Positions 30,301 through 57,276 of a stretch of DNA of 64,000 nt are shown in pieces. Numbering within the stretch: the first letter of the stretch is position 1; each line of letters starts with the position of its first letter. The notes under the pieces are model-generated. The model made no database searches and was not told where the DNA came from. It saw nothing but the letters and a program-made list of their open reading frames with translations. Origin of the DNA: a virus; the IMG/VR virus record IMGVR_UViG_3300046370_000202, one strand, 5' to 3'. The translations under genes and the position numbers were made by a program.

Positions 30301-33300
30301 AGAATTCCATCGAACAAATACTGCTTCACTGTTCATATCCATTATGTGAACACTGTTACCACCATTATAGATTGTTGCAACAGGAACCCTTGGATTTGAT
30401 CTTGCGCTATCATACACATAGACGTTATAACTATCAGCAACCGCATAGAACTGACGACCCGCATACTCTACTTCATAGGTGATTGTCTCACCGATGTCTG
30501 GAGTAATTAGAGGAACGTTTTCAGCACCAATTGTTGTCTGTAGTGCAGCTAGTGTACCAGTGTTTGTGTTGATTAGATTCTGTAGACTGTTATCAGCACT
30601 TTCATATGCAGATACAATTTCTTGTAGAGTATCTAATGTCTCTGGGGACGTACCGATAATTGCATCTAGTTGTGCTTGTAGTGCTGCGTCACCTGTGACG
30701 ACTGCACTTGCGTTAGCCTGTTCTGCCAACTGAGCACGAACAACTTCTGCGTCCAATGCATCTTCTACAGCATTGAGTTCGGCGACAGTTGCGCCACTTG
30801 CAGTTCGAGCTGCGTTATCTGCAACAATATCGTCAATTTGGTTCTGTAGAATTCCATCAGCACCAATACGTGAAGTTGTTTCGTCTGTAAGGTTTTGCGA
30901 CTGTGTGTTAATAAATGTCTGTAAGGAAGCGTCACCAGCTAGACGTGCAGATTCTTCTGCATCTATCTGTGCTTGTAGAGCGCTGTCAGAAGACATACGT
31001 GCAGTCGTCTCGATAGACGCCTGTGCGATGCGTTGAGTCTTCTCGTCTAATATGTCCGCCGCAAGATCAGCGTCACCAGCGATACGAGAAGTTGCTTCTG
31101 AAGTGTCGGCTGCAATACGTGCGTCTACTTCTTGTTGAAGTGCTGCATCTGCACCAGCTGTATCTGATAACTCAGTGTGTAGTTCATTAATCGCATCAAC
31201 TAGTGTTGAGGCAGATGTGTCTAGAGAACTAACATCACCAATCGCGGATGAGTTTGCAGTCATCAATGTCTGTAGATCACCATCAGCACTTTGGAATGCA
31301 GCTACGATCTCTTGTAGTGTATCCAAATTTTCTGGAGATGAACCCAAGATCGCATCAATCTGTGACTGGATGCTTGATAGATCTAAGTTTGCTAGATCCG
31401 AAGACTTCGCTAGTTCTACCCACTGACCACCGTGTGCAAAGTATGCCGCACCTTCTGCGTGGACGTGTGCAAACATACCGTGATTTGCAGATGCGTCTGG
31501 TAGATCTCCCATAGTAGAGAACAATGGGTGAGCTTGTCCACCCGCCTCAACTTGGTCAATCTTGTTTTGCAACAAGGCTTCTGCCGCTAAAGCGCGGGTC
31601 TCTTCTGCAGAGATTGCTGTAGCGTTTGCTTGTTCAGCCGCTGTTGCACGAGCCGTTTCTGCGTCTACTGCTGCCTGTACTGTTGCATCACCTGCAACAC
31701 GAGCGGTTGCTTCTGCGGAAATTGCACCAACACGAGCACTTGACTCTGCGGTATCTGCCGCTTCACGAGCTGAAACTTCTGCTGCTAGTGATGCGGTTAG
31801 ATCTGAATCGCCAGAGATACGCGATGCTTCTTCTGCATCAATAGATGACTGTAATGCATCGTCTGCGTTTTCACGTGCAGTTGCTTCTGCTTGAACAGCG
31901 AATGTACGTTCAGAGACTTCTTGAGTCAATGATGCATTTACTGCCGCAATAGTAGAAGAGTTGCCTGTGATTAGACCTGTAAGGTCACTATCTGCACCTT
32001 CAAACGCCGCCACAACTTCTTGAATTGTGTCTAGTGTTTCTGGAGATGTTCCAACGATTGCGTCTAGTTGTGATTGAATGCTTGATAAATCGCTACCAGT
32101 TACAGTATTCAACTGTGATTGTAGATCAGAGACCGCAGCTGCACGTGTTTGTGCTTCTGATAGGTCAGCAGCAATACGTGCTGCTTGTTCTGCGTCTACT
32201 GCAGCTTGTACTGTTGCATCGCCAGCAACACGAGCGGCCGCTTCTGCAGTTACTGCGTCTTCACGAGCAGTCTTTTCTGTTTCTATTGCCGCAGCGTTTG
32301 CTTGTTCTGCAGATGTTGCACGAGCAATTTCTGCATCAATTGCAGCACCACGTGCCGTTGCTTCCGCAGCGACTGCATCAGCGATATCCTGAGATACTGC
32401 CTCACGTGCGCGTACGACTGTGAAGAATAACTTATTGTCACCTTCAGCAATAGCGTCTGTGCTTGTTACTGCGATTGGAGTTGCTGTAACGCCGTCGTAT
32501 ACTTCCCAACGATCGTCTAGTTCGTTCCAACGTAGTTGAACTGCAGGTTCGTCACCACGCATGATACGAATACCTGCGTTAAGTACCGGAGCACCTGTAG
32601 AAACATTGCTGTTTAGATCGATGATGTTGTCAGCTACTTTTAAGGTCTGGCTGTCTAGAGTTGTTGTAGTACCCTCGACGGTCAAATTGCCTTCGATGGT
32701 TACATTATCTTCAAAGACTTTATCGCCAGTGATTGTACCGTCTGCATTTAAACTGTCAACATATTCTTTTGTTGCAGCGTCTGAAGCATCTACTGGAACA
32801 CCGACATTTGTAACTTTGTGTGTTCCCATATCAACAGCACCACCAAACTTAGTTGGTTCGCCGCCGACTGTAGAAATTGTTTCTCCAACGGACATTACTA
32901 GATCTGACTTCAACTGGACACTTTCGTCGCCAGCGTTTAGATCAATGTTACCACCACCTGTTGCGCCGAACGACAGGTTCTGACCTGCGTCTGCGTACAT
33001 AGTGATTGTACCGCTGTTGTCTTCTAGAATCTTAGTACCGTTAATGTACAGAGAGCCTGGACCGATGTATAGATCTTTCCATACGCGATCTGGAGAACCT
33101 AGTGTGTACTCGTTATCCAATGATGGAATTAGGTTTCCTGCCCAACCGTCACTGTCGTTATACGTGAACTGTGATGCTTGCAAACTTGCAACGTCTGCTT
33201 GACGTGCAACTGCTTCAGCAGTAATTGCGGCCGCGTTTAGATCGTCTGCCGTTATCGCACGTGCGATCTCAGCATTCAAACTATTTTGCAGTGCGTTATC

Positions 33301-40311: not shown

Positions 40312-41016
40312 TTAAACTGCAGAAATGTCGTCAAGAACCATCTCACGAAATTCTTCAGAAGTCTCTGACCAGTCAAATACATAAGAAACGGTAACACGCC
40401 AGTCATCTGTAGATGCGGCATGATACATTAACTTTTCTGGTTCGTCATAGTGTCCGAAGTATGCAGCCTTACAAGTCCATACTCCTGGCGCGTCTTGACA
40501 ACGAACAACTTCTTTCGTTTCTGGATGAATGTAGTCAAAGTAACCAGAACCATCTTCTGAGTAAGAGAAGATAAGATTAAAACCTGGCGCATTTGCATTG
40601 TTATGCCATGAGATATACCCGCCCGGTGGATAGACTGCTGCAAGTGCATTGTGTTTAACAGACAAGAAGTTCATCATCTTGTCGTTTAGATCACGTAGGT
40701 GATGAGTCATGTCACGTTTAAAGATTGGGTCTGCATCTTTTTCAAACATCTTATGTGCGCGGTCAGATAGTTTGAAGTTATATCCAACCATCTCTTCGGG
40801 AAATCCATCATGTCCCTTGCCCATTGCAACGATGTCATTCATGTATCCTTCACCAACGTAGTATGAACGTTGACGAATATGTTCTGCTGCAGTCAAGTGA
40901 CAGTTCTTTTCAAAACCCTGCATAGTATGCAATTTGGCATACTGGTCTAAAACCTCTAGCAACTCTGGGTTATTTACCTCTACGTGCTTTAGATATTGGT
41001 CGTTTACCTGTGTCAT
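40312..41016 (-). CDS. Putative Fe(II)/2OG-oxygenase-like DSBH protein with H-x-N motif; paralog of 2340..2987
   Basis: YPPGGYISWHNNANAPGFNLIFSYSEDG.GYF...W.CKAAYFG...YHAA...RVTVSY. Confidence 0.6.
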   Translation of the reverse strand: MTQVNDQYLKHVEVNNPELLEVLDQYAKLHTMQGFEKNCHLTAAEHIRQRSYYVGEGYMNDIVAMGKGHDGFPEEMVGYNFKLSDRAHKMFEKDADPIFKRDMTHHLRDLNDKMMNFLSVKHNALAAVYPPGGYISWHNNANAPGFNLIFSYSEDGSGYFDYIHPETKEVVRCQDAPGVWTCKAAYFGHYDEPEKLMYHAASTDDWRVTVSYVFDWSETSEEFREMVLDDISAV

Positions 41017-41741
41017 ACGATTGGAGTATCCTTGTTCAACCCAGCCGAGAAGTGTCTTAAAATTACGGGTCCCGTCTCAGGTCGTGTTCTTGCCCAATTG
41101 AGGGCATTGTAATAATTCCACCTCAAGTCATCATCAAAGATACCAACCTTGAGGTCCTTATACTTTTCTTCCTTCTCAGTTAACCACCAGAGCGAGAACT
41201 GATCCCAAGACTTGAGACTGTCTGCATACCCTTCCGGCCACCAAGAGTCGTTCATCTGTCTGAATGTCAAGTCCCACCAATCGTCCATGAATTCACGTAC
41301 AATCGGTTTACTCATATCATACAAACAAACGCCACCGCATAATGTAAACTTCGCCATACCCTCTGGTGTAGAGAAGTCGCGTTCTGCGTAGATGTAATCT
41401 CTATCATCTGTTAACGCAGAAAACACCACATCGTGGTCTTTCATCTCATCCCAAACTTTTACAATGTCTTCGTGCTCACATTCCATATCAGCATCAATGT
41501 ACATTGTCAAGTCATACGGAGACTTTGCCATCCCCCACAACTTCGCACGGTAGTGATCATCACAAAAGATGATATCATCCGCGACTTCGCGACCACGATC
41601 ATCAATAAACCGTTCTTCGGTCACTAAACAAATCTTGCAATCCTCATAGTAATCTCTAATGGATTCGGCAAGATTCAATGCGTACAAATAAAAGTTGCGT
41701 TTCTTAGACGCAACTAATAAAAATCCTTTACTCTTCTCCAC
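41013..41741 (-). CDS. GT-A fold glycosyltransferase, GT8-like
   Basis: RAKLWGMAKSPYDLTMYIDAD (DxD), GGVCLY, WDQFSLW, RWN, VILRHF. Confidence 0.82.
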   Translation of the reverse strand: MEKSKGFLLVASKKRNFYLYALNLAESIRDYYEDCKICLVTEERFIDDRGREVADDIIFCDDHYRAKLWGMAKSPYDLTMYIDADMECEHEDIVKVWDEMKDHDVVFSALTDDRDYIYAERDFSTPEGMAKFTLCGGVCLYDMSKPIVREFMDDWWDLTFRQMNDSWWPEGYADSLKSWDQFSLWWLTEKEEKYKDLKVGIFDDDLRWNYYNALNWARTRPETGPVILRHFSAGLNKDTPIV

Positions 41742-42189
41742 TGTCTTCGGCCTCTAGTTGTTCTTGCAGAATCATAATTGAGTACATATCTACTTCAATC
41801 TTTGACTTCGCCCGACGCAGTTTTGCCTTTAACTTGCGGTTCTTAGAGTTTTTAATCTCCTCAACCTCAAACGCTTCTAGTTTGTAGTTGAACAGTTTTT
41901 CAAGCTTACGTGCCTTTTGATGTTCTTCTTCACGTATCTTTTCTTCTTCAGCTTCTGCCTTCTTGCGAACAACACGATCAGATGTTTCCTTATCAATCGC
42001 ATCTTCACCTAGGGCATCAACAACTTCATTAAACAGTTCGTTCTCACTACCATCCTTATCATGACGATGTAAAAACATTTGTTGGCGCGTCACTCTACCA
42101 ACGTCATCTTCAAGTTCTAGAATACAGTTTATTTCTTTCTTTTCGTCTGTTTCCCAGAACGCATTATCCATCCAACGCTTATAACTCAT
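41728..42189 (-). CDS. Hypothetical charged helical protein, candidate fibre chaperone
   Basis: 153-aa ORF with GGAG RBS directly after the 1800-aa gene, overlapping the GT start; function inferred from position only. Confidence 0.55.
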   Translation of the reverse strand: MSYKRWMDNAFWETDEKKEINCILELEDDVGRVTRQQMFLHRHDKDGSENELFNEVVDALGEDAIDKETSDRVVRKKAEAEEEKIREEEHQKARKLEKLFNYKLEAFEVEEIKNSKNRKLKAKLRRAKSKIEVDMYSIMILQEQLEAEDSGEE

Positions 42190-42295: not shown

Positions 42296-45200
42296 TTATG
42301 CAACACGTACGTATAATGTATATGTTTCAGTAACCTCTGTAAGCGTATCTGAAATCGTTGCACCCACGTAGTTACCCAAGAAAGATCTTGCATAGTTACC
42401 AACGTAATCTCGAGCATAATTACCACCAAATGTACGTGAGTAATTACCTGTGAAGTCTCCAACATAGGCAGAGTCACGATTACGTGAGTATGCACCAGAG
42501 TATGCAGAAGTACGGACACGAGCATATGCAGAGACACGGACACGAGAGTAATTACCTACGAAGTCGCGTGAGTAAGTGCCAGTATATTCACCAGTAAATG
42601 TGCGTGAATAATCACCGACATAGTTACCACCGAAGTCGCGAGTATATGTGCCAGTGTATTCACCAGCAAAGTCACGGGAGTAGTTACCTACATATTCCCC
42701 AGCGAAGCCGCGTGAGTAGTTGCCCGCATACTGACCAGAGAAGTCTCGAGTATATGTGCCAGTGTATTCACCCGCGAATCCACGAGCATAGTTACCTACG
42801 AAGTCGCCGACAAAGTCACTTGCATAAGCCCCAGTGTATTCACCAGCAAATGTTCTTGCATAGTTACCAGTAAAGTCTCCAGCAAAATCACGTGCATAAT
42901 TACCAGCAAATGTTCTTGCATAGTTACCAGTAAATGTGGCATTATATGTTCCCGCATACTCACCAACAAATCCACGTGAGTAAGCACCAGTATATTCACC
43001 AACGAAGTTGTTGTTGTAAGTACCAGTGTATGCGCCTGTGTATTCACCTACGAATGTTCGGTTATAAGTTCCTGCGTATTCGCCAACAAATCCACGTGAA
43101 TAGTTACCCGCAAAGTTTCCACCAAAGTCACGTGCGTAGTTTCCTACGTAGTTTCCTCCGAAGTCTCCAACAAAATCACCGATAAAGTTACCAGCGAAGT
43201 TACGAGAGTAGTTACCAGTGAATGTGCGTGAGTAGTTGCCTGCAAAATCTCCAGCGAAGTCACGCGAGTAGTTACCAGTGAATGTACGTGAATAGTTACC
43301 AGCAAAGTTTCCTGCAAAGTTAGTCACACGATCACGAGCATATGTTGATGCACGGTTGCGGATGTATGCAGAAACACGAGTCACGACATATGCAGAGTAA
43401 CGAGTACGAGTAGATGTACGAGTATACTCACCAGTAAAGTTACCGGCATATTCACCAGCAAATCCACGTGAGTAGTTACCTACAAAGTCACCTGCATAGT
43501 TACGGGCGTAGTTACCGATAAAGTTACCAGCGAAGTTTGTTACTCTATCACGAGTGAAGTTACCTGTGTAATCAGTAATTCGTGTACGTGCATACGAAGA
43601 GTTGCGATTACGCGTAGATGTACGTGTTGATGTACGAGTAAAGTTACCTGTGTAATCAGTAATTCGTGTACGTGCATAAGCTGAGTAACGTGTGCGTGTT
43701 GAAGTAATTGTCGATACACGTGTGAAGTTGCCTACGTAGTTTGTTACGCGATCACGAGCGTAAGCTGAGTTACGTGTACGAGTATAGTTTGTTGCACGAG
43801 TTCTTGCATAAGCACTGTAACGAGTACGAGTAGATGTGCGCGTAGATGTACGAGTAAAGTCACCAACATAGTTAGTAATACGAGTACGTGAGTAGGCACT
43901 GTAACGAGTACGTGTTGAAGTACGTGTTGACGTACGAGCATATTCACCTACGAAGTCACCAGCATAGTATCCAGTACGTGTGTAGTTACCTGTATTGGTA
44001 AAGGTCTGAACACGATTACGAGTGAACGCACGAGCGTAGTTACCTGTGTAGTACAATGTACGAGTGTAGTAACCAGTACCTGTACCCGTACGTGTTGACG
44101 TACGGCTGTAATTGCCTTCATATGAGAACGGACGACTACGAGTATAGTTTCCTACAAAATCACCAGTAAAGTTGGTTACACGATCACGTGAGTAGTTTCC
44201 AGCGTATGAGAACGCACGACTTCGATTATACGTAGAAGTACGGGTGCGCGTATAGTCGCGAGAGTAGTTTCCAGCGTAAGAGAATGCACGACTGCGAGTA
44301 TAATCCTCTGCGGATACACGAGTTCGGGCATAGTCCCCAACAAAGTTGCCGGTAAAAGAACCAGCCGTGCCTTGAGTAACCAACCCATAGTAATAATTTT
44401 GAAAAAGTTGCATTTGGAGAGTGCCTCTTGAATAGGTCACTCCATTGTGCGTAATTGAAGTTGCGTTGGCGTTAGTGCTGGTCGCAATAGTCGTAGCGTT
44501 AATAACAACAGAAGCTCCCGCAGTACTCTTTAACCAATATGTGACATATTGGGCGTACTGAGTAGTACTTCCCGAATTAACAGAAGTTCGGGTTGATGTG
44601 CGTGCGTAGTTGCCTACATACGAAGTACCGCCCGTAACTCCAGTATAGTTTCCTACAAAGTTTCCTGTAAAAGAACCGCCAGAACCACTGTAAGTAACGC
44701 CGTAACGAGTTTCCAGCCCAAAGTTCTCTCGGAAAGTGCCTCGATTATACGTGACACCACCATTGGTTATTGATGTCATGGTGGTTCCTTGCGCTATAGC
44801 GACAGAAGAACCGCCCACATAAACAATTACAGTACTGGATTCATTATCAATAACCCAACCATCTGTCACTGTGTTGAAAGGACTCTCCGAATAATCGTCA
44901 GTAGCACCACCAGAACCCGTAGAAACGCGAGTAGAAGTTCGGGTGAAATCTGTACTAGTTGGAGTTCCAGTGTAGTTACCTAAATAAGATCCCGTTCGGT
45001 TTCGAGTAAAGTTTCTTGAATAGTTTCCGCCGAAGTTACGCGAATAATTACCCAAATAAGATCCAGTACGAGTACGGCCATAGTTGCCTACAAAGTTGCC
45101 TGCGTAGTTGACATCTGGTTCGCGAGTATAGTTACCCAAATAAGATCCGGTTCGTGTACGCGCATAGTTACCTACAAAGTTGCCTGCGTAGTATAGTGTA

Positions 45201-47698
45201 CGAGTATAAGCTGGGGTACGTGCATAGTCTGCAGCATAGTTACGTGCATAGTTGCCAGTGAAGTCGCCGACATAGTACAGTGTACGTTGATAGTTCAAAG
45301 TACGTGTTGAAGTACGTGTTGATGTGCGTGAATAGTTTCCTACAAAATCACCAGCATAGTTACCAGCAAAACCACGAGAATAGTTGCCTACAAAGTCGCC
45401 AGTAAATGTAGTCGCGTAATTACCTACGAAATCACCACCGTAGTTGCCTGCGAATCCTCGAGCATAGTTGCCTACAAAGTCGCCTACATAGTCTCCGACA
45501 TAATTTCGGGCGTAGTTACCAACAAAGTTACCTGCGAATGTCGTTGTATAGTTGCCTGTGTAGTTACCTGCAAAGTCACCAGCGTATCCACGAGCATAGT
45601 TTCCTACGAAATCTCCGGTGAATACTGTGGTATAATTACCTACGAAATCGCCACCGTAGTTGCCCACAAATGTACGTGCATAGTTTCCTACGAAATCTCC
45701 GGTGAATACTGTAGTGTAGTTACCCACGAAGTTACCAGCGTAATTAGTAACACGGTCACGTGTGTATGCAGATGCACGAGTACGGGTAGATGTACGCGCA
45801 TAAGCTGAGTAACGTGTTCTCGCAGAAGTACGAGTAGAAACACGAGCATAGTTGCCTACGTAGTTTCCTGCAAATCCGCGTGAGTAGTTACCTACGAAGT
45901 TACGTGAATAGTTGCCTTGGAAAGAACGTGAGTAGTTTCCAATAAAGTTGCCAGCAAAATCGGTCACACGATCGCGAACATATGAAGAAACACGGCCACG
46001 AGTAAACTCACCCGTGAAGTTAGTCACACGATTGCGTGTGTAAGTAGAAACACGGGCACGAGCATAAGCATTTGCAAAGTTAGTGACACGGTCGCGAGTG
46101 TAGTTAGTGATGCGGGTTCGTGTGTAATCTGCAGAGTATGCTGATGTGCGTGTACGAGTTGAAGTTCTTGTATAAGCTGAGTTACGAGTACGTGAGTATG
46201 TTCCGGCATAAGCTGATACACGGTTTCGTGAATATGTACCAGAGTATGTACCTGTGTATGAAGAAACACGAGTACGAGCGTAAGTGCCTGAATAGGCAGA
46301 GTTACGAGTACGTGCATATGTACCTGCATAAGCAGAAACACGACCACGAGTGTATGCAGAAGAACGAGAACGCGTGAACGTACCAGTAAAGTTCTGTACG
46401 CGATTACGTGTGTAAGTAGAAACACGTGCGCGTGAGTAAGTTCCCGCAAAGTAACCAGTAAATGCAGTTAGTCTATTACGAGAATATGTAGAGATACGGT
46501 TACGAGCATACGCGCCAGAGTACGCAGATGTGCGTGTGCGCGAATATGTTCCAACGTATGTTGAGACACGGGTTCTCGCATAAGTGTCTGAATACGCGGA
46601 TGTACGAGTTCGTGAGTAGGTTCCTGTATAAGAGGAAACACGTGTACGAGTGTAATCAGCCGAGTAAGTAGAAACACGATTGCGAATATAAGTCCCTTCA
46701 TATGAAGATGGTCGCGTACGAGTGTACTCTCCGACGAAATCTCGAGAATAGTTACCTACGAAATCTCTATTATATGTTCCTGTGTAGTCTCCAACAAAGG
46801 TGCGGGAGAATGTATCTACACTATTACGTGTGTATGTTGAAACTCTATCGCGAGTGTAAGCCGAAATACGCGTACGTGCGTATGATGAGTTACGTGTGCG
46901 AGAGTATGAACTATTTACAATAGTACGTCGGGTGTTAGTTGCATCACCAACAACAGACCATGTTCCAGGCAGTGTTGGTACACCTTGCGCAGCTGAACGG
47001 AACTGATAAGATCCGATCGCACCGGCCGTCGCACGGAGGGATTTGACACGTTGACCAATAGTATATTTGATCTGATCATCCGACATTTCTTTGAATCCGT
47101 CAAAGTTGGATGACCCATCGTAACAAATAGCAACGGGACGCACTGCGTTAACCACAGGCATCGTTACACGTTGATAGATGTTGTAATTTGTTACTGTACC
47201 ATCACCGTGTGTGTCTGAGAAGACATTTGCGAGGAAGACCGTATAGTCTGCGCCAGGTGATGTACTAGAAAGTTTGAATGTACCGACATAGTCATTCTGG
47301 ACCATGTTACTGAGTACACGACTTGCAAGATTATCCAAATCTGGATCTACCATTTCGTAGAAGCCTGGATTTGGGCCTGAGTCATAATAACCCACAGGAC
47401 GAACAAAATCGGCACCAGTTTCATCTGCAACACCGCCCACCTGACGTAGAGGTGTGGTTACAGTTGTAGATGTGATATTAGTAATTGGGTGAGTACCCGC
47501 AGATTCATTAAAATACGCGTCCGTAAATGAACCAATATTAACATCACCAGTTAAACTGATATCTCCGACTTCACCAGCAGATGCATCTGCTAATGCTTGT
47601 CCCACCGCATAAGAAAGATAGTTCTCTTCTAGCGGTGTAAATTCCTGTAGGTCACCATTAGTATTTTTAATTTTTAGTGGGATACTAGATGCTGACAC
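42296..47698 (-). CDS. 1800-aa tetrapeptide-repeat fibre-like protein with mirror-complementary arms (predicted giant antiparallel hairpin with forked tip)
   Basis: GTG start after a late promoter; ~260-aa N-terminal domain; residues 265-912 and 1133-1780 built from [YF]xRx, [YF]xGx, Rx[ST]x and SxRx units; two central ~65-75-aa domains; C-terminus YTLYVRVA. Confidence 0.85.
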   Translation of the reverse strand: MSASSIPLKIKNTNGDLQEFTPLEENYLSYAVGQALADASAGEVGDISLTGDVNIGSFTDAYFNESAGTHPITNITSTTVTTPLRQVGGVADETGADFVRPVGYYDSGPNPGFYEMVDPDLDNLASRVLSNMVQNDYVGTFKLSSTSPGADYTVFLANVFSDTHGDGTVTNYNIYQRVTMPVVNAVRPVAICYDGSSNFDGFKEMSDDQIKYTIGQRVKSLRATAGAIGSYQFRSAAQGVPTLPGTWSVVGDATNTRRTIVNSSYSRTRNSSYARTRISAYTRDRVSTYTRNSVDTFSRTFVGDYTGTYNRDFVGNYSRDFVGEYTRTRPSSYEGTYIRNRVSTYSADYTRTRVSSYTGTYSRTRTSAYSDTYARTRVSTYVGTYSRTRTSAYSGAYARNRISTYSRNRLTAFTGYFAGTYSRARVSTYTRNRVQNFTGTFTRSRSSAYTRGRVSAYAGTYARTRNSAYSGTYARTRVSSYTGTYSGTYSRNRVSAYAGTYSRTRNSAYTRTSTRTRTSAYSADYTRTRITNYTRDRVTNFANAYARARVSTYTRNRVTNFTGEFTRGRVSSYVRDRVTDFAGNFIGNYSRSFQGNYSRNFVGNYSRGFAGNYVGNYARVSTRTSARTRYSAYARTSTRTRASAYTRDRVTNYAGNFVGNYTTVFTGDFVGNYARTFVGNYGGDFVGNYTTVFTGDFVGNYARGYAGDFAGNYTGNYTTTFAGNFVGNYARNYVGDYVGDFVGNYARGFAGNYGGDFVGNYATTFTGDFVGNYSRGFAGNYAGDFVGNYSRTSTRTSTRTLNYQRTLYYVGDFTGNYARNYAADYARTPAYTRTLYYAGNFVGNYARTRTGSYLGNYTREPDVNYAGNFVGNYGRTRTGSYLGNYSRNFGGNYSRNFTRNRTGSYLGNYTGTPTSTDFTRTSTRVSTGSGGATDDYSESPFNTVTDGWVIDNESSTVIVYVGGSSVAIAQGTTMTSITNGGVTYNRGTFRENFGLETRYGVTYSGSGGSFTGNFVGNYTGVTGGTSYVGNYARTSTRTSVNSGSTTQYAQYVTYWLKSTAGASVVINATTIATSTNANATSITHNGVTYSRGTLQMQLFQNYYYGLVTQGTAGSFTGNFVGDYARTRVSAEDYTRSRAFSYAGNYSRDYTRTRTSTYNRSRAFSYAGNYSRDRVTNFTGDFVGNYTRSRPFSYEGNYSRTSTRTGTGTGYYTRTLYYTGNYARAFTRNRVQTFTNTGNYTRTGYYAGDFVGEYARTSTRTSTRTRYSAYSRTRITNYVGDFTRTSTRTSTRTRYSAYARTRATNYTRTRNSAYARDRVTNYVGNFTRVSTITSTRTRYSAYARTRITDYTGNFTRTSTRTSTRNRNSSYARTRITDYTGNFTRDRVTNFAGNFIGNYARNYAGDFVGNYSRGFAGEYAGNFTGEYTRTSTRTRYSAYVVTRVSAYIRNRASTYARDRVTNFAGNFAGNYSRTFTGNYSRDFAGDFAGNYSRTFTGNYSRNFAGNFIGDFVGDFGGNYVGNYARDFGGNFAGNYSRGFVGEYAGTYNRTFVGEYTGAYTGTYNNNFVGEYTGAYSRGFVGEYAGTYNATFTGNYARTFAGNYARDFAGDFTGNYARTFAGEYTGAYASDFVGDFVGNYARGFAGEYTGTYTRDFSGQYAGNYSRGFAGEYVGNYSRDFAGEYTGTYTRDFGGNYVGDYSRTFTGEYTGTYSRDFVGNYSRVRVSAYARVRTSAYSGAYSRNRDSAYVGDFTGNYSRTFGGNYARDYVGNYARSFLGNYVGATISDTLTEVTETYTLYVRVA
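42359..44302 (-). repeat. C-terminal (returning) arm of 12-bp/4-aa degenerate repeats
   Basis: Residues 1133-1780 parse into tetrapeptide units plus four 2-residue shifts. Confidence 0.9.
44963..46906 (-). repeat. N-terminal (outgoing) arm of 12-bp/4-aa degenerate repeats
   Basis: Residues 265-912 parse into tetrapeptide units plus four 2-residue shifts. Confidence 0.9.
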
Positions 47699-47818: not shown

Positions 47819-48268
47819 TTATGCTGGGGCGTCAGGCCATGGAACATCGTCCAAACTTTCAATTCCGTCTAGAACGTCTGTGATATCACGTAGTTCTTGA
47901 CGATAACCCGCCCACGCATTCTTCATATCTTCTGACAGTGGAGCATCTGGAATTTGTGTCCAATCTGTTCCCGCAAGAAGACCATTTCTTCGTGTACGAA
48001 TATCTTTTATTAGATCCTCAAGATCCCATACCCAGTTTCGTGATTCTGTATCCCATCGACAGTATTGATTTGGTGCGTCCTCACGAGGGTGAAACCTTCC
48101 ATCATCAAAATAATTTCTTTTTATAAACTCAAACCCATTCTCAATAGGAAAGTCTAAATGAAGGATTAAAGATCCATCTTCCTGAAATCCTTGTTCAGGC
48201 AATCTTCCATATGCAGTTTGAAGGTTTATTATTTGTTGATCTTTAATGTATGCAATATGATTTACCAT
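47819..48268 (-). CDS. Phage tail (fibre) assembly chaperone
   Basis: IRTRRNGLLAGTDWTQIPDAPL....K.AW..YRQELRDIT....VPWP signature. Confidence 0.85.
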   Translation of the reverse strand: MVNHIAYIKDQQIINLQTAYGRLPEQGFQEDGSLILHLDFPIENGFEFIKRNYFDDGRFHPREDAPNQYCRWDTESRNWVWDLEDLIKDIRTRRNGLLAGTDWTQIPDAPLSEDMKNAWAGYRQELRDITDVLDGIESLDDVPWPDAPA

Positions 48269-49962: not shown

Positions 49963-51471
49963 TTATGTTAACTTCCCTAACTTAATTCTTGTGGCTCCAT
50001 TCGCGTCACTAATAGTGATCAAGTTTCCTTTGATGTTCATAGAACCGTCGTCATCTGAAGTAGTAACGTCGATTTCGCCTGTCACTTTCGCATTAGAAAG
50101 TTCTACACCTTCAGCAGTAACACTAAACGGAGCAGTACCATTACCAGTTCCATCTGTAGGTAGAATCTTGAATGTATCTGCGGTAATTTCAAAGTCTGCC
50201 GTGGTACCGTTGTTACCGAACTTAATACCTGCAACCTTTGGATTGCTCTCGGTTCCTGCAACAAGATCGATACCCCACGTTGCTGTAGTATTACCTTCCG
50301 AGTCAATCAACGCAGTAAGCGTTTGCGTTGCTTGTGAGATGTCACTATCAATTTTAGCAATTAAGTCGGTCTGCATTTGGGTGGTGACGGAAGTGATTTT
50401 TCCATCGACTGTAGTAATCTGACTTTCTAAAGCACTCTTTGCTTCGGCAACCGCTGTCGTTACATTACCATTCTCATCTGTCACGAATACATTGTTATTA
50501 AGAGTTGTTATATCCGACGCCAGTGCAGTGACTCTATTTTCAGAGGAATCGTACTCTGTACGAGAAATTAATTCTGATTGTGCTTCAGATAAAGCTTCAA
50601 CTCTTGTGTTTAGATCTGAATCAACAACCGCTAGTCCCGTCTCTAATTCTACAATCTTTGCCGCTTCAATTACCAGTTTGTCACTATCCGCGTTCATGCG
50701 AATTGTTAACGTGTCTCCTGCCCCTGCCATTGCAGAGTCGATCATCTCTGGAGTAATGTTGATGCCGTCTTGAATAAACTGATCTAAAGTAAGTCCTAGA
50801 GAGTCGACCGATTCTAGAATTACACTCAGACCATCTGAGTTCACATTAATCCTAGAAGTCAACGAGGAGACTGCGCTAGTGTTGATATCAATTCTTTCGT
50901 TGGTGTCCGAATTAAATAGTAATAGGTTGTTCTCAACGCTGTCGATGATGCCAGCGAAAGAAACAATCTGATCGCTGTTTGCTTCGATGCGTGAGATGAT
51001 TGAAGTATTAGCACTAGCGATGGCTGATGCGAGAAGGTCAGAGTCTATCCCACCAAGGACCATATTATCTAAAGAAGCTTGGGTTTGGATCAAGGCTTGT
51101 GATAAAACAAGAATTCCAGAATCGGTGTTATCGATACGGGACTCTAATGTAAAGATAGCAGAGGCGTTCGCTTGAATATCAGAATCATTTACGTTTGTAT
51201 TGATCGTGAACTGTTGAAGGTAATCTTCGTTGATCACTGTTAGGAAATAGTTCGAATCAAGGAACGTCGCCATGAAGTCGTTGAAGACCGAAGAATCCAA
51301 ATAATTATTGATTAAATTATTCGTCTCTCCAGTATCTACACCACCAGACTCGGTCGGTGTCGGTAAAGGAATATCTCCCGTTACAATACCATCGAAGTTC
51401 TGATTTATTTTTAGAACAGCGGCGTTAATATTGTCTGCAAGATTGACTACTTGTATGTTACTCATTTGCAT
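49963..51471 (-). CDS. Coiled-coil fibre with DUF1983 / lambda-J-like C-terminus
   Basis: N-terminal D......KINQNF anchor motif; C-terminal VAGIKFG....ADFEITADTFKI...APFSV...RIKLGKL. True start may be ATG 51465. Confidence 0.72.
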   Translation of the reverse strand: MQMSNIQVVNLADNINAAVLKINQNFDGIVTGDIPLPTPTESGGVDTGETNNLINNYLDSSVFNDFMATFLDSNYFLTVINEDYLQQFTINTNVNDSDIQANASAIFTLESRIDNTDSGILVLSQALIQTQASLDNMVLGGIDSDLLASAIASANTSIISRIEANSDQIVSFAGIIDSVENNLLLFNSDTNERIDINTSAVSSLTSRINVNSDGLSVILESVDSLGLTLDQFIQDGINITPEMIDSAMAGAGDTLTIRMNADSDKLVIEAAKIVELETGLAVVDSDLNTRVEALSEAQSELISRTEYDSSENRVTALASDITTLNNNVFVTDENGNVTTAVAEAKSALESQITTVDGKITSVTTQMQTDLIAKIDSDISQATQTLTALIDSEGNTTATWGIDLVAGTESNPKVAGIKFGNNGTTADFEITADTFKILPTDGTGNGTAPFSVTAEGVELSNAKVTGEIDVTTSDDDGSMNIKGNLITISDANGATRIKLGKLT

Positions 51472-51696: not shown

Positions 51697-54600
51697 TTAG
51701 TGATGCGCAACGTCAGTTCCATCTTCGGAATCTGACCCTGTACTGTCACCACTGCCTCCTGCACCCGAAGTGCCAGAACTTTGTGCTGGGGTTAACTCTC
51801 TAGAGATGCGGTGATAGAATATTGAGATGCCGGGATTACTCTGGTCTAATTCTTCTAGATCACCCTTGAAGTAAGTGTACCCATCATTAGCGTCAATAGA
51901 TACAATTTGTGTATCATCAAGACCTTGTGTTTGAGAAAGGTCATATGTTATACTAGATCCATTCCAATAAATGCTAGCTATATTAAATTCGTCACCGCCG
52001 CTTATTATTTGAGAGATAGAGAAATAATACTGAGGTGCTGTTCTAGAATAGAAATCGAGTTCCGGTTCAGGTTCTGGTTCGGGCTCTGGTTCTGGTTCAG
52101 GACCTGGCTCAGGTTCGGGCTCTGGTTCTGGTTCAGGACCTGGCTCAGGTTCCGGTTCTGGTTCGGGTTCTGGTTCAGGTTGTGGTTCGGGTTCTGGACT
52201 TGGAGCAGGAGTATCTACTGGGTTCAAGTCTAGGTCAAACAACTCTCCAAACTTCTGCAGTCCGCTAGCAGTGATCAAAGAGATTGCACGAAGGTCTGTA
52301 ATCATCGGAGACTTAGATGAATTGTCAGACTTCATTACAATCATGACTTGGAACACAGTAAATGGTTCTGCGTCTAGTGTGTACTCATAGTCACGGAAAA
52401 TGTCCGGATTCTCATCTGTAGGCATTGGTGTGTCAATTTCAATTTTCGCCCACAACGCATCAGCAAATGCGTTCTCATCTAGAGATGTACGTGCGTACAC
52501 TTCAAACTCTGCACCACGTGCTCGGTTCGCTGCGAAGATAATTTTGAGACCTTCTGACAACTCATCAATGATCACAGGTGTTGTAATGTGTTGAGTTGCG
52601 TTTCCATTATCGATGACATTTTCTAGAGTAACTACAGAAACTCTTTGTAGATCAATCACAGGGGAAACTTTAGGGTCGCCCGTTGACATATCTAATTTGA
52701 ATTTTAATGTTTTTACGGGAGAGTTGTCTGAGGTAGCGACAACATTCGGATTCGTATTTACATTTAGGTCATTGAGCGACACGCTTTGTATTTTACTTAC
52801 AGGAGGATCCTGTGTATATGAGTGTTGTTGAAATGTACGACTAGACCCATACGAATCCGCCAGAGCTTTAGTTACGGTAGGTTGAATACTTGTAGACCTA
52901 GGTGAGAAAGACTGCACTTGTGGAATATATTGATCATAAACCACCTGTTGAGTTGCCGTGACGTTATTACCACCACCTTGCGCAGAACTTGTTGCTGCAG
53001 CCGGTGCGGTAATGGTATACCCTTCCCACGTCGGAGATTCTACAACAAATGATCCTGTAAGTTTGTCGGGAGTAAGTCCGCCCACATTACTTGATACGTC
53101 TGATAAGACGACAACATCACCACTACTAAATCCATGCCCTTGGTGTTGCACTTTAACTTTATTTGATCCTGCTTCAATAGTTTCAAACGGACTCTGAATC
53201 AAAGTCACTTTAGGTAACTCTGCATTCTCTAAGTGTAGTACACCAGAAGGAGCAAATTCTGCGCGATCCAGTTTAAACATCAAATCCTTAGTTTGATCTG
53301 GAGTCCACGTTGATCCGTTCTGCGACAAGAACAGAGAACCTAGTGTTGGTTGACGTGATACTCTGGCTTCACGAGAAGGTCCTACAACAAACTCATAAGT
53401 CTGTGCGGTATATACATTATAATCTACAGACTCAGCAAGTAGTACTATAGCATATTCTTCGCCAGGAGTCAAGTAAATTGGTTCATCAAATACAACTTCT
53501 GTTCCTCTTTCAGACAGGTAATCTATACCCTGTTCTTGTGCGTCTGCTAAAGGTGTCACCATGATATCTTCTGAATTGACAAACTTTACTGCGCCTGGTA
53601 CAATACGATTTGTAGGTACGCCATTCTCTACTGCTCGGATTTGAACTTGCATAGGAATGACAGAGTCTTTACTCTCAACATAAACATGTGCTTTGGTGAT
53701 AAAGATGCCGTTTGGATTTTCTACTTGATCAACAAAGAATGTCTGCGCAAGTGGATCTCGCCAATAAGTTGTTTCAACAATACGCGTTGTACGCATAGTA
53801 CGTTGTATTGTCTCGATAGTACCCACCGAAGTGTATCCTGCGCGACTGACCGCAGTAGAATCTTCTTCATTGTTTTTGCTGATGTCAAGTAGTTTAAATT
53901 CTTGCCGACCAGTTCTAAAGCTAATATCTGGAGTGTTGGGTAAGAAGAAAGAACCTATCAGTTCTCCTTTATCGTCAGTTACTAGGTCGCCTTTGCCGCC
54001 TAATTCGGTAGGATATTCGGTTGCATTAGAATATTGATTGCCGTATTCGGTTGGGTCGTCAGAGAAGTTGACATAAGTAGACTCTGGTCTTACCCAATCA
54101 TTCACATCTTTGTTGCCAAAGAAAGCCCACATAGGACTATTAGGCCTCAATCCCTGTACCCTAAATGATATTTTGCGAGAACGCATGAAAGGAATAATCT
54201 CCACATCCAGAATGCGTTCTCCTATAAATTCTTGAATTGTTTTTGACGTTACTTTAGATCTAATTTTATTATTAGGTCTTGAGAAGAAAGTAGGCAAATA
54301 AGTCGTAATACGACGTACAACATTCTGCATTATATCGGGCAGTCTTTTAGTCTCTACCCATTCGTCAGATGACGGAGACAATGTCATATGTCCGTTAGAA
54401 GTGATAACCGCAAAAGGGTTAATGTTGTCTGTACCAGTCGCTAATAGTTGAGATATTATTGTAACGTTTGTATGAGGTAGAGTAACAAGGTCTCCTTTCT
54501 TAGAGGCGGTATTTTGTATGTTGGTTGCATCATACATTAAACGTACAGAATTTTCCACGAATGATGGACGCAATAAACCATCCGGATCTACCGATGCTCT

Positions 54601-57276
54601 ATAAGCAGGATTATGCACGTCAGAAAAGTTCAGTGTGCTAAAGTTATCCGCAATGAATCCCGCTTTGGTACGAGGGTTGCCGTTCGCATCTAATACTTGT
54701 AAGACGTTGGTATTAGTCTCAAGGAAACTCAATGCAGTCAACTCGTACAATGTCTCTACGCGATCAGACAACTTAGAGATGTCTTTCATTGTGAACCGGC
54801 GATTAGGTATGTATGTGCTGATCACATCCGAACGGTCGAATGTGTATGCGTTCAACGTGAACTTGTATAACGCTAATGATCCTGCGGGCGTCTCTGGTTC
54901 GCGTGGATCAATAGATGGTTGACCCTGAATAACTTGTAATTCCCCAAAACCTATATCTCCACGACTGTCTGTAGAGTTCACTACAAGAATATCCGTACGC
55001 GGTAAGTAGTAATCAACTTGATTAATTATAATCGATGAGGCGTTCTGTGGCAACTCGATGATATCAAAAGAGTCTTGTGGCTGAACAACATCTCTATCTG
55101 GTCTGAAATCTAGTACATCGCGTAAAGAGATTGTCTCTCCAGTGCTAATTGTGGTGTGTGAAGGGATATCTTCATATGCTAGTCCAGTGTATGAACTCGC
55201 AGCAAAGAATTTGCCACCATCTATACGTTCGAAGTACTCAAAGGAAATTTCTATTGATACGTTAGGTCCGTGTGGGATAGTGTATCCTTCTTTTACGAAA
55301 GCTTTTGCGATATCATAATAGTTGTCTCGTTGACCGCCATCTAAATCAAACTGGAATGTGATGTCTGTAGTTGTACTACCGTTAGTTAGTTGGACAGATG
55401 TTATTGAAATCGCGTCGACAACCGACAAAGAAATATGCGTTGTTTCTTGAGTCACATTTATTGTTTTCGACCCCGTAGTGACTGTTTTTGTTTTAGGGGA
55501 GATAGACTCTTGCTTAAAGTATGCGATCGCATATGTCTTATTGTCATCTAATCCGGAATACGTTGATGAATTATCAGAATTGGGTGTAGGGGCAATTTTA
55601 AGAATTGGTCCGTTTACTTCTGAAATTATCCAACTAGAAGATTCAACACCCGCAATAGTAATTACCCCGCCAGATGGCTGGTCTGTTCTAAATTTTTGTG
55701 ATGTGTAAGAAGCGCCTTGAATGCTGTTTTGTTCCGGAGATTTATATGGCAACGCGAATAACAGATCGTTATTAGATGTTCCATATAGTGTGGTATCAAA
55801 TGTAAGCGGTGTTTGGTCTGAATCTGTATCGAAAGATAAAGGTCTTAGTGGGATATCATTTCCAAATTCATCCTGTAAATATCTTACACCTGAGAATGGG
55901 TAACGAGCACTAGTTACGACAGTCTGGCCGTCGCTGTCAGTATACTCAATTTTATCCATTTTAATGTCAAAGACATACAAGCGATAACCTACACCATCTC
56001 TTTGAATTCCTCTAATGTGTGCGGTTCCTAACAATTGTGTGACTTCTTGATAAACTCCAAATAAGTTTACTTTGCCAAATGTGCCTAGTTGACCGAACCC
56101 TTCAGTACGATCTGGATCAATGTATACCCAGTTTCCATATACAGCAGGTACCGCCTCTTGTGTCTGTGTTCGCGTCTCACGGGCTTTAGGTACAGTTATG
56201 TCAGTAGTACCTACTTCTAAACGATAACCGTCTACGTACGCGACACCCTCTGTAACGTCTAAGTTTAGACTTGTGCCATCTTCTTCTAGGTCTTCAAAGA
56301 TAGCTCTAAACTCTTCGACAACATAGTCGCCAGATTCTTCTTTCGTGCGAAGTGCCAGTAGATCATTGACACGATTATATGCGTCAAATGTACTAATCTC
56401 TCGTGTAATCACGCCGTTAACGATACGAGCAACGAATACAAAGTTATCTTCTCCGGCCTCTTTACGTGTAGACGGAATTAGTTTAATCTGATAACGATCT
56501 GCGCCTGGGGCGGTTCTATCAGGAACTTCGCCTTGATTGTCGTATAACTTTGGATCTTCGTTTGATGACGGTCCACCCGCTTTGACTATATTCTGTTCTA
56601 TCTTAAATCCAAAGTCTACTGTGGGAGTGCCACTATACTTGTCAACGAATGTGCTGCCGCCACTTAGATATACAAAATGTCCTTGTACAAAAAAGTCCCC
56701 CGACGAAAAATATGCTTTAGTCGATTTACCCGAAGCTGGAATAACAAGATCTAGTCCATCATCTCCAGTGACTATCGTATCTGGACCTACGACCATGTTA
56801 ACTCCACCAGTGCCATCTGCAAAAGATAGAACATTGGTGGCGTCTACACGAGGAGAAATGGTTGTATCAGTAACACCTAATGTGCTTGTATATTGTACGT
56901 ATAGTGTAGCTGGATCGCCTGTAGGATTTGATGGATTGGGAACAACCGCATCATGCAACTCTATAATCTTAAACTCGACTTCACCATTCGTCAACACATC
57001 CCCAACGGAAGCACTTGTAATATCACTGCCGGACGTTAATCTAATATACTCCAATCCATTATCTACAGTCGCACCGCCTGGATTGACCATCGCACCTTCT
57101 TTAAAGATGTTCTGACCGAATCGTGCGATTTCTTCTTGAATGATTGTTTGTTGTTCGATTAGTTCACGAGCTTGAAGCGCACGACCGGAATTGTATAGGA
57201 CACGATAGTAACCGTCATTCGCGTCATAGAAATCGCGATATGTTTCTCTGAACGTTTTGTTTGTAAAATCTACCAT
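51697..57276 (-). CDS. Large baseplate structural protein (DUF4815/VrlC-like) with added (EP)n linker and C-terminal tip domain
   Basis: [86 protein letters not shown]...DLMF. Confidence 0.88.
52059..52196 (-). repeat. Pro-Glu coding repeat (linker)
   Basis: [12 protein letters not shown]...PGPEPE tract. Confidence 0.9.

Follow-up and report, generated by a model that had tools for sequence, protein, structure and literature searches.

A 64,000-nucleotide stretch of viral DNA (IMG/VR virus record IMGVR_UViG_3300046370_000202, hereafter the window) carries a gene for an 1800-amino-acid (aa) fibre-like protein, P0001, in which two long repetitive arms flank a variable apex. The sequences of these arms strongly indicate that they pair in antiparallel orientation, with residue i opposite residue 2042 − i, and two exact DNA repeats, one in each arm, face each other in this register. 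The explanation that we consider probable is that the protein folds back into a stem, and that existing repeat units in the two arms were converted as a pair and kept by selection.

Both arms of P0001 consist of tetrapeptides ending in Tyr or Phe, with an aromatic at each fourth residue. The repeat period is four, not five, and an aromatic-aromatic register is obtained only when the sum of paired positions is 2 modulo 4. The tetrapeptides come in two flavours, one Arg-rich (for example YARTRxTxY and TRTSTRTRYSAY) and the other Gly-rich (for example FVGNY). Between the arms lies the apex, where 74-81% of residues differ from those of relatives versus 12-39% in the arms. Both termini are conserved, and the variable part of the protein is mid-chain, as the following list shows.

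42296 to 47698, minus strand: gene for the 1800-aa putative fold-back fibre-like protein P0001, with a GTG start (list of open reading frames and translation)
46913 to 47698, minus strand: conserved N-terminal domain, aa 1-262, the proposed proximal anchor (92% aa identity to the orthologue L002 and 65% to L051)
44924 to 46912, minus strand: N arm, aa 263-925, xxx[Y/F] tetrapeptide repeats (from the sequence; predicted to pair with the C arm at i+j=2042)
44357 to 44923, minus strand: apex, aa 926-1114, two predicted small globular tip domains that differ between relatives as if swapped (divergence and structure prediction)
42365 to 44356, minus strand: C arm, aa 1115-1778, tetrapeptide repeats complementary to those of the N arm (residue pairs at the register sum 2042, below)
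42296 to 42364, minus strand: conserved C-terminal tail, aa 1779-1800, and stop codon (the ...YTLYVRVA end is kept in orthologues)

Antiparallel register between the arms

P0001 has 113 metagenomic homologues, and 71 IMG/VR loci yielded 40 distinct complete orthologues (1163-2282 aa) together with a few larger, more complex ones. Two orthologues are cited throughout: L002 (1729 aa), with 86% aa identity to P0001, and L051 (1595 aa), with 70%. A third relative, L001, encodes a partial protein (P0002), of which only the N arm is comparable.

We use the register S to denote the constant sum i+j of paired residues. When a smoothed Arg-minus-Gly profile of the N arm is compared with that of the reversed C arm, the correlation is r=−0.63 with a sharp optimum at S=2042-2043. 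No complementarity was found in parallel registers, the best of which gives a weaker, like-with-like correlation of r ~+0.40. At S=2042, Arg faces Gly in 78 pairs and Arg faces Arg in two, and mutual information is at its highest.

The same preferences extend across the family. Observed and expected pair counts are 1631 and 435 for G:R, 1235 and 215 for Y:Y, and 1060 and 259 for F:R, and R:R pairs are nearly absent (6 observed versus 249 expected). The pairing code comprises Y:Y, R:G, F:R, V:T and N:A. For all 40 distinct orthologues, the top-scoring R:G register has a z score of 7-10 against the remaining registers. Moreover, the register equals the N anchor plus the C anchor plus exactly 16 in 21 of the 21 orthologues in which both anchors were found. 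A generic R/G scan of the 113 distant homologues was noisy, with approximately 15 giving the expected constant; the clean result comes from the closer IMG/VR orthologues.

A landmark test was conducted on a MAFFT alignment of 30 full-length orthologues. For every i tested (265-790), the positions orthologous to residues i and 2042 − i of P0001 sum to the orthologue's own S in approximately 27 of 29 cases. For example, the positions orthologous to residues 640 and 1402 do so in 27 of 29, a set that includes at least nine different outer-arm lengths, and the outer arms range from ~190 to ~680 aa in length. By simple algebra, any gain or loss of length in the N outer arm is therefore accompanied by one of the same size in the C outer arm.

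Substitutions likewise respect the register. Differences between P0001 and L002 face each other across the arms 24 times, against 8.8 expected, and S=2042 is the best of 165 registers by this measure. When N-arm residues 585-700 and C-arm residues 1342-1457 from 22 phages were aligned separately, the top mutual-information pair among all 116×116 N/C columns was 664:1378, which lies on the predicted antidiagonal. We accept i+j=2042 because four lines of evidence favour it, none of which makes use of the two exact repeats.

The outer stem, where a pair of 60-aa insertions is located (46556-46735 and 42599-42778; see below), shows a local peculiarity. In P0001, L002 and L037, all of which have the 60-aa pair, the local R:G pairs prefer an 8-residue shift (19 versus 9); other orthologues tie or prefer the global register. 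A register shift of −8, or a bulge, in the outer third of the stem was considered across the family and is not proposed here: the 8-aa period of the units makes offsets 0 and −8 score equally on R:G, and counts of Y:Y pairs favour 0. The 8- and 12-aa periods of the units probably account for the local preference.

The facing exact repeats

An earlier note on this DNA had reported a 35-bp exact repeat in the N arm (45594-45628 and 45678-45712) and a 38-bp exact repeat in the C arm (43557-43594 and 43641-43678), each with a spacing of 84 bp. Both were recovered at these positions, and no other exact direct repeat in the gene is as long. Shuffled sequences give an expectation of 0 matches for either repeat, and the next-longest exact repeats, of 33 bp (spacing 60) and 26 bp (spacing 108), are both in the C arm. 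The N repeat encodes aa 663-674 and 691-702, and the C repeat encodes aa 1341-1353 and 1369-1381.

The repeats are also symmetric under the mirror, as had been proposed. Under i+j=2042 the N-arm copies project onto residues 1340-1351 and 1368-1379 of the C arm, with an offset between centres of 1.5 aa. When the repeats are held fixed and the constant is varied, a mirrored match of the same spacing occurs for only 14 of 801 constants (2037-2050), or 1.7% of registers, and the value of 2042 was fixed independently of this match. The shared spacing alone is weak evidence because 84-bp spacing recurs elsewhere in the N arm, at aa 739/767 and 836/864. Both repeats are embedded in arrays of 28-aa super-units that have an equal length of 128 aa and a mirrored unit order.

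45347 to 45730, minus strand: Gly-rich N-arm array of 28-aa super-units A, B, C (plus 16 aa) and E, aa 657-784 (tandem repeat finder, period 84; unit identities)
43556 to 43939, minus strand: Arg-rich C-arm array of 28-aa super-units e', c' (plus 16 aa), b' and a', aa 1254-1381 (tandem repeats, unit identities)
45678 to 45712, minus strand: N-arm exact tract in unit A, aa 663-674, putative recipient of conversion from B (relatives differ here)
45594 to 45628, minus strand: N-arm exact tract in unit B, aa 691-702, putative donor (common state of B)
43557 to 43594, minus strand: C-arm exact tract of unit a', aa 1369-1381, facing the tract of unit A (exact repeat)
43641 to 43678, minus strand: C-arm exact tract of unit b', aa 1341-1353, facing the tract of unit B (exact repeat)

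The earlier note interpreted both repeats as fresh 84-bp tandem duplications, one per arm, that lengthened the stem by seven tetrapeptides. The equal spacing and the mirrored position agree with such an origin. Moreover, true fresh paired tandem copies exist in orthologues: L006 has 53 and 63 exact nucleotides of 84, and L043, L040 and L053 have exact runs longer than the repeat period. A pair of 28-aa units was also gained earlier in the same array. The copies were said to be identical at synonymous positions, which would again favour duplication; this identity holds inside the exact tracts, but the whole 84-bp units have diverged, with third-position identities of 0.57 and 0.61. Overall nucleotide identity is 76% between A and B in the N arm and 79% between a' and b' in the C arm. 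Each pair has one uninterrupted exact core (35 or 38 of 84 nucleotides), and the remainder of the unit is ~60-75% identical.

Relatives largely refute the proposal that the repeats added length to the stem. L002, L051, L001 (for its N arm) and most of 21 further orthologues already have A, B, a' and b' with no difference in length, and their arrays either are as long as those of P0001 or have one unit pair fewer at another place in the array. An origin of both repeats by fresh duplication is thus unlikely.

Comparison with L002 confines the change to two patches. Nucleotide identity between the two genes is ~0.8-0.95 in the arms and drops at two sites, over aa 661-700 (0.57-0.65) and over aa 1341-1380 (0.50-0.67); within the arrays such dips occur at those two sites only. 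At the unit A site, L002, L051 and L001 carry AR(N/D)F..-type or SRNF..-type sequences, and P0001 has the TTVFTGDF of its own unit B. Across 21 orthologues this site is polymorphic between AR(N/D) and TT states, and the (A/T)TTFTG(D/N)F type is the common state of unit B (~14 of 21). At the unit a' site, L002 carries a different sequence, ARTSTRTRGSAY, and L051 carries ..ITNYVGNF.

The best reading of these sequences is that both tracts would stem from recent conversion over a short stretch, of A by B and of a' by b', which brought no new length. Conversion is preferred to a fresh 84-bp duplication because the exact cores are short, the units pre-exist in relatives and the identity dips are confined to the patches. 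As in concerted evolution by gene conversion, the exact tract is shorter than its unit and has diverged flanks, and the donor and recipient units both pre-exist in outgroups.

The residues that changed are those that face each other. Positions 666:1376 are V:N in six phages and T:D in five, and positions 664:1378 are D:V or T:V in most phages and V:T in P0001. In P0001 the A:a' pairs are now the same as the B:b' pairs, namely V664:T1378 and T666:D1376. Two changes (N to D and V to T) distinguish unit a' of P0001 from an L051-like state, and these are exactly the partners of two of the changes in the N arm. The changes in a' would fit compensatory co-conversion.

Paired changes in the family and their origin

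The earlier note had also proposed that equal-size changes in length compensate one another across the arms, and this behaviour is real in the family. Mirrored indels of 12/12, 20/20, 28/28 and 60/60 aa were found. Relative to L051, P0001 and L002 carry extra segments in both arms that are equal in size and mirrored in order, and most orthologues are without the 60-, 20- and 28-aa segments on both sides at once. The paired 28-aa (84-bp) unit lies within the repeat-bearing array and is confined to the window phage and a small number of relatives. Exactly at the repeat patch pair, 12 aa of the N arm and 12 aa of the C arm are absent from six orthologues. The inserted segments of P0001 are as follows.

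45485 to 45568, minus strand: N-arm member of the 28-aa insertion pair, aa 711-738, unit C (most orthologues lack it)
43742 to 43852, minus strand: C-arm member of the 28-aa insertion pair, within aa 1283-1319, gap placed as 16+12 aa (alignment to relatives)
45956 to 46015, minus strand: N-arm member of the 20-aa insertion pair, aa 562-581 (mirrored onto 1461-1480, within 1 residue of the C-arm member)
43262 to 43321, minus strand: C half of the paired 20-aa insertion, aa 1460-1479 (alignment to relatives)
46556 to 46735, minus strand: N half of the paired 60-aa insertion, aa ~322-381 (alignment to relatives)
42599 to 42778, minus strand: C half of the paired 60-aa insertion, aa ~1641-1700 (alignment to relatives)

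A census of exact repeats of at least 24 nucleotides was conducted across 30 non-redundant orthologues, in which repeats were counted as mirrored if they had the same spacing and centres within 10 aa. Among 104 N-arm exact repeats, 30 have a mirrored C-arm partner of the same spacing, with spacings of 24-252 nucleotides at many positions. Shifted registers yield 1.5 ± 1.8 such pairs, with a maximum of 12. Several of the mirrored pairs have exact runs that exceed the period and are genuinely fresh tandem copies.

Large unpaired indels among relatives, which the earlier note regarded as damaging to its proposal, are scarce without being wholly absent: the outer arms are equal in 27 of 29 orthologues, and one exception is L042. 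This protein differs from L043 by one substitution in ~1650 aa and has lost two tandem units of 12 aa each from its C arm alone, a 24-aa gap corresponding to aa 1439-1462 of L043. Its register constant minus its length is 266 rather than 242. L042 is a candidate for a natural unbalanced intermediate, or else for a collapsed repeat in the assembly. Unless the assembly collapsed, single-arm slippage does happen.

The 33-bp repeat of P0001 (42842-42874 and 42902-42934, encoding aa 1589-1599 and 1609-1619) is a further case confined to the C arm. The N-arm segment that mirrors it (aa 423-453) has the same 20-aa period with only 67% nucleotide identity, and the repeat looks like a one-sided recent homogenisation. 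The 26-nucleotide C-arm repeat likewise has no N-arm partner.

The following mechanism would account for these patterns and is the explanation that we judge probable. The N and C arms would run antiparallel in one chain, with the tip domains mid-chain and the conserved termini together at the base; in this fold-back model the C-terminal tail would end beside the N-terminal domain. An Arg-rich stretch of one arm would face a Gly-rich stretch of the other, for which the simplest fit may be a very long, two-stranded, β-ribbon-like stem. In such a stem the aromatics of both strands would face each other, and Arg side chains would lie over the Gly residues of the partner strand.

The tracts could then arise by gene conversion or by misaligned recombination one unit out of register. 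In the N arm, B would have overwritten A, and in the C arm, b' would have overwritten or re-homogenised a', such that the A:a' rung set would be a copy of the already matched B:b' rung set. Each arm would mutate alone, by slippage or recombination in its own tandem array, and selection for an unbroken register would retain only those combinations with a matching change in both arms. Where phage populations are very large, matching changes could be united when co-infecting variants recombine. The same process may generate equal-size paired duplications and deletions, with arms that would nearly always be equal in length.

Several observations weigh against this explanation. No structural model supports a ribbon, as the arms are given a predicted local distance difference test score (pLDDT) of only ~30-65 by AlphaFold2 (AF2). 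A run with residues 640-1402 of P0001 and 25 orthologue segments gave a mean pLDDT of 42, with one tip domain confident and the arms unusable; they appear as strands, without helices, at low confidence. In a short module from the larger homologue P0003 (a 76-aa periodic stretch and a domain) the periodic part likewise has a pLDDT of ~30. When known structures were searched with the low-confidence N-arm model from AF2, the likeness to solenoids and tailspikes was weak, with Z≤6.3, which is in the noise range, and was not used.

Other difficulties concern the conversion events. The lengths of paired exact tracts are uncorrelated across the family (rho 0.20, p 0.28), and a correlation would be expected if the two events were simultaneous. 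The 33- and 26-nucleotide homogenisations in the C arm of P0001 are without an exact N-arm partner, and many conversions are therefore one-sided. Covariation is not absolute, as T:N pairs are also present. The direction of conversion in the C arm is less certain because L002 has unrelated sequence at a'; in L051, a' is already b'-like, and the event may have involved two residues only. The TT state in unit A could be an old polymorphism that was only recently re-homogenised. Also, given mirrored 28-aa arrays, the coincidence of exact tracts in a single gene adds modest weight, since by our estimate it might arise about one time in ten.

A one-step origin was also considered, wherein co-infecting phages exchanged the inner stem together with the tip in a single long recombination or cassette transfer, and both junctions slipped by one 84-bp unit. 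The tip appears clearly exchanged between P0001 and L002, identity to L002 declines somewhat from the outer N arm (~0.9) to the inner arms (~0.75-0.83), and both tracts are at the outer edge of the two arrays. However, the inner arrays (aa 701-860 and 1161-1340) are still ~80% identical to L002, and the replaced DNA therefore corresponds to two short patches rather than to one 2-kb cassette. The tracts also came without a change in length. Although a single long recombination with both junctions slipped is possible for some events in the family, it misfits the 35/38-bp pair, for which we consider it quite improbable.

Alternatively, random conversion in period-84 arrays might have produced two longest tracts that merely happen to face each other. 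The 84-bp spacing at other N-arm sites and the two unpaired C-arm tracts are compatible with this possibility, and the chance of facing tracts in one gene, given mirrored arrays, is roughly 0.1 by our estimate. However, only 1.7% of registers match for P0001 alone, the family has 30 mirrored same-spacing pairs versus ~1.5 expected, and the tracts carry covarying residues. A coincidence is very improbable in view of these observations.

A constant i+j would also result from an inverted repeat in the DNA or mRNA, or from arms that pair between two chains in an antiparallel homodimer; neither origin seems at all likely. A nucleotide-level palindrome was rejected, as arm-to-arm nucleotide complementarity is at background (0.19-0.33 versus a mean of 0.25 at corresponding offsets) and no long inverted repeats link the arms. 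Pairing within a chain and pairing between chains are indistinguishable from sequence alone, but a dimer would place anchor domains at both ends of the rod and the tips at its centre, unlike any fibre.

Gene context and known systems

The apex of P0001 contains the variable part of the protein. Compared with L002, 74% of its residues differ and one tip domain is absent, and the tip region looks to have been exchanged between close relatives, judging from the alignments. The two apex domains of P0001 are related to each other, as they share the similar motifs GGVTYNRGT and NGVTYSRGT; L002 has one such domain only, and L051 has a different one. AF2 is confident (pLDDT >90) only for aa ~929-1004, which correspond to the first tip domain.

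Some homologues are larger than P0001 and are not simple hairpins. The homologue from Phage C48C1 (L074, OQ984149 141011-151054) has its main register at S=2664 and carries ~930 further residues on the C side, which form several modules and are followed by the usual conserved C-terminal tail. Each module consists of a ~76-aa Gly-type periodic stretch and then a ~150-aa domain. L011 (3884 aa) and P0003 are likewise larger and are not simple hairpins. The sequences of these homologues suggest branched stems with several tip domains.

Database searches offer little direct annotation of P0001. No Pfam family matches it at E≤1, its sole PHROG match is phrog_15773 (function unknown, E 3e-6), a PDB sequence search gave no match, and a search of the ESM Atlas returned unnamed viral clusters only, with scores <0.9. 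Its N-terminal domain is 76.5% identical to that of a 3347-aa hypothetical protein of Phage C48C1 (Kyanoviridae), which is the nearest named record. The neighbouring gene upstream does match described families.

47819 to 48268, minus strand: upstream gene for a phage tail assembly chaperone-like protein (Pfam PF16778, E 1e-15; PHROG 4912, tail fiber assembly)

The order of the chaperone-like and fibre-like genes is common to the window phage, L001 and Phage C48C1, and a Phage_Tail_Tip protein is encoded close by at 49963-51471. The gene for P0001 belongs to the tail-fibre and host-recognition module of a T4-like marine myophage. A hypervariable host-recognition cluster has been described in T4-like marine myophages (PMC7029224), to which the region of the fibre-like gene corresponds, although that description is not specific to the P0001 family. 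Two giant open reading frames, at 18334-33831 (5165 aa) and 51697-57276 (1859 aa), belong to the same structural and host-recognition region, and the latter has a DUF4815 match and a weak acidic-repeat match. Three overlapping minus-strand genes downstream (40312-42189) have no Pfam match at E≤0.01 and no PHROG match at E≤0.001.

The close relative P0002 (L001, 10001-15397) has ~900 extra residues between the N-terminal domain and the N arm, and these carry FG-GAP and Laminin_G_3 matches. It ends at the contig edge, at a position matching aa 842 of P0001, and the closeness of its 1798 aa to the length of P0001 is a coincidence.

Should the evolutionary signals be right about how the arms pair, P0001 would represent a fibre architecture for which we found no described counterpart; searches of the literature for fibres with tetrapeptide repeats, for repeats in the fibres of cyanophages and for fold-back fibres yielded no description of this family. 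Such a protein would have a fold-back stem hundreds of residues long, a readable pairing code and host-binding tips mid-chain. With this family, the coordination of two-site change becomes testable in a protein: its natural record comprises dozens of paired events (duplications, deletions and conversions), one or more variants that seem unpaired, and close relatives one event apart. The mechanism may bear on the evolution of host range at sea, where T4-like myophages are very abundant in ocean samples. If the stem is edited by paired events as proposed, fibre length, tip display and hence host recognition would be rapidly tunable in these phages. The pairing code might also be reusable for the design of β-ribbons of chosen length.

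Known phage fibres, including T4 gp34-37 and T5 pb1, and the adenovirus triple β-spiral are parallel trimers with the receptor-binding tip at the C terminus. P0001 resembles them in being long, repetitive and, by prediction, β-rich with swappable tip domains. As with the long tail fibres of T4-type phages, its gene is in a fibre module, directly downstream of a tail assembly chaperone gene. Unlike those fibres, P0001 has its variable tip mid-chain and both termini conserved, and no Pfam or named PHROG fibre domain matches it.

Pentapeptide-repeat and other β-solenoid proteins share with P0001 short periodic repeats of aromatic or hydrophobic residues, and the low-confidence AF2 model of the N arm is weakly similar to them (Z 4-6.3). 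However, pentapeptide-repeat proteins have a five-residue repeat and form a quadrilateral β-helix, and the period in P0001 is four. Moreover, a solenoid formed by a single arm would leave unexplained the mirrored complementarity and the mirrored indels between arms that are 2 kb apart.

SMC, Rad50 and MukB have antiparallel intramolecular coiled-coil arms with an apex domain and with both termini together at the base. Their arm length is conserved, and indels must match in both segments. The N and C arms of P0001 would similarly pair antiparallel around an apex with matched changes in length. Unlike these α-helical heptad coiled coils, the arms of P0001 have xxx[Y/F] repeats rich in Gly, Arg, Thr and Tyr and are predicted to form strands. 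P0001 also differs in its residue-level R:G and Y:Y complementarity and its frequent paired tandem duplications, and it has no sequence relationship to these proteins.

In the stalk of the streptococcal antigen I/II adhesin, the A-region helix is wound with the P-region polyproline helix. P0001 resembles this protein in its proposed fold-back stalk, the pairing of two different repeat types, its variable tip domain and its matched repeat numbers. Unlike P0001, antigen I/II combines an α-helix with a polyproline II helix, has only 3-4 repeats and is a bacterial cell-wall protein, with no homology between the two.

The resemblance to RNA helices, which evolve by compensatory paired substitutions and by paired insertions in expansion segments, concerns evolutionary behaviour. 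In both cases distant segments would pair under i+j=constant, with covarying substitutions, matched indels and branching in larger homologues, although in P0001 the complementarity is between amino acids, and nucleotide complementarity was absent when tested. We lean slightly towards viewing the stem as a protein analogue of an RNA helix, in which arms of more than 500 residues would zip together by a position-specific amino-acid code and the stem would be edited by paired duplication, deletion and conversion, with branching in larger homologues. By analogy, then, the closest counterparts of P0001 may be the SMC/Rad50 arms and the antigen I/II stalk for its architecture and matched indels, and the RNA helix for its evolutionary behaviour.

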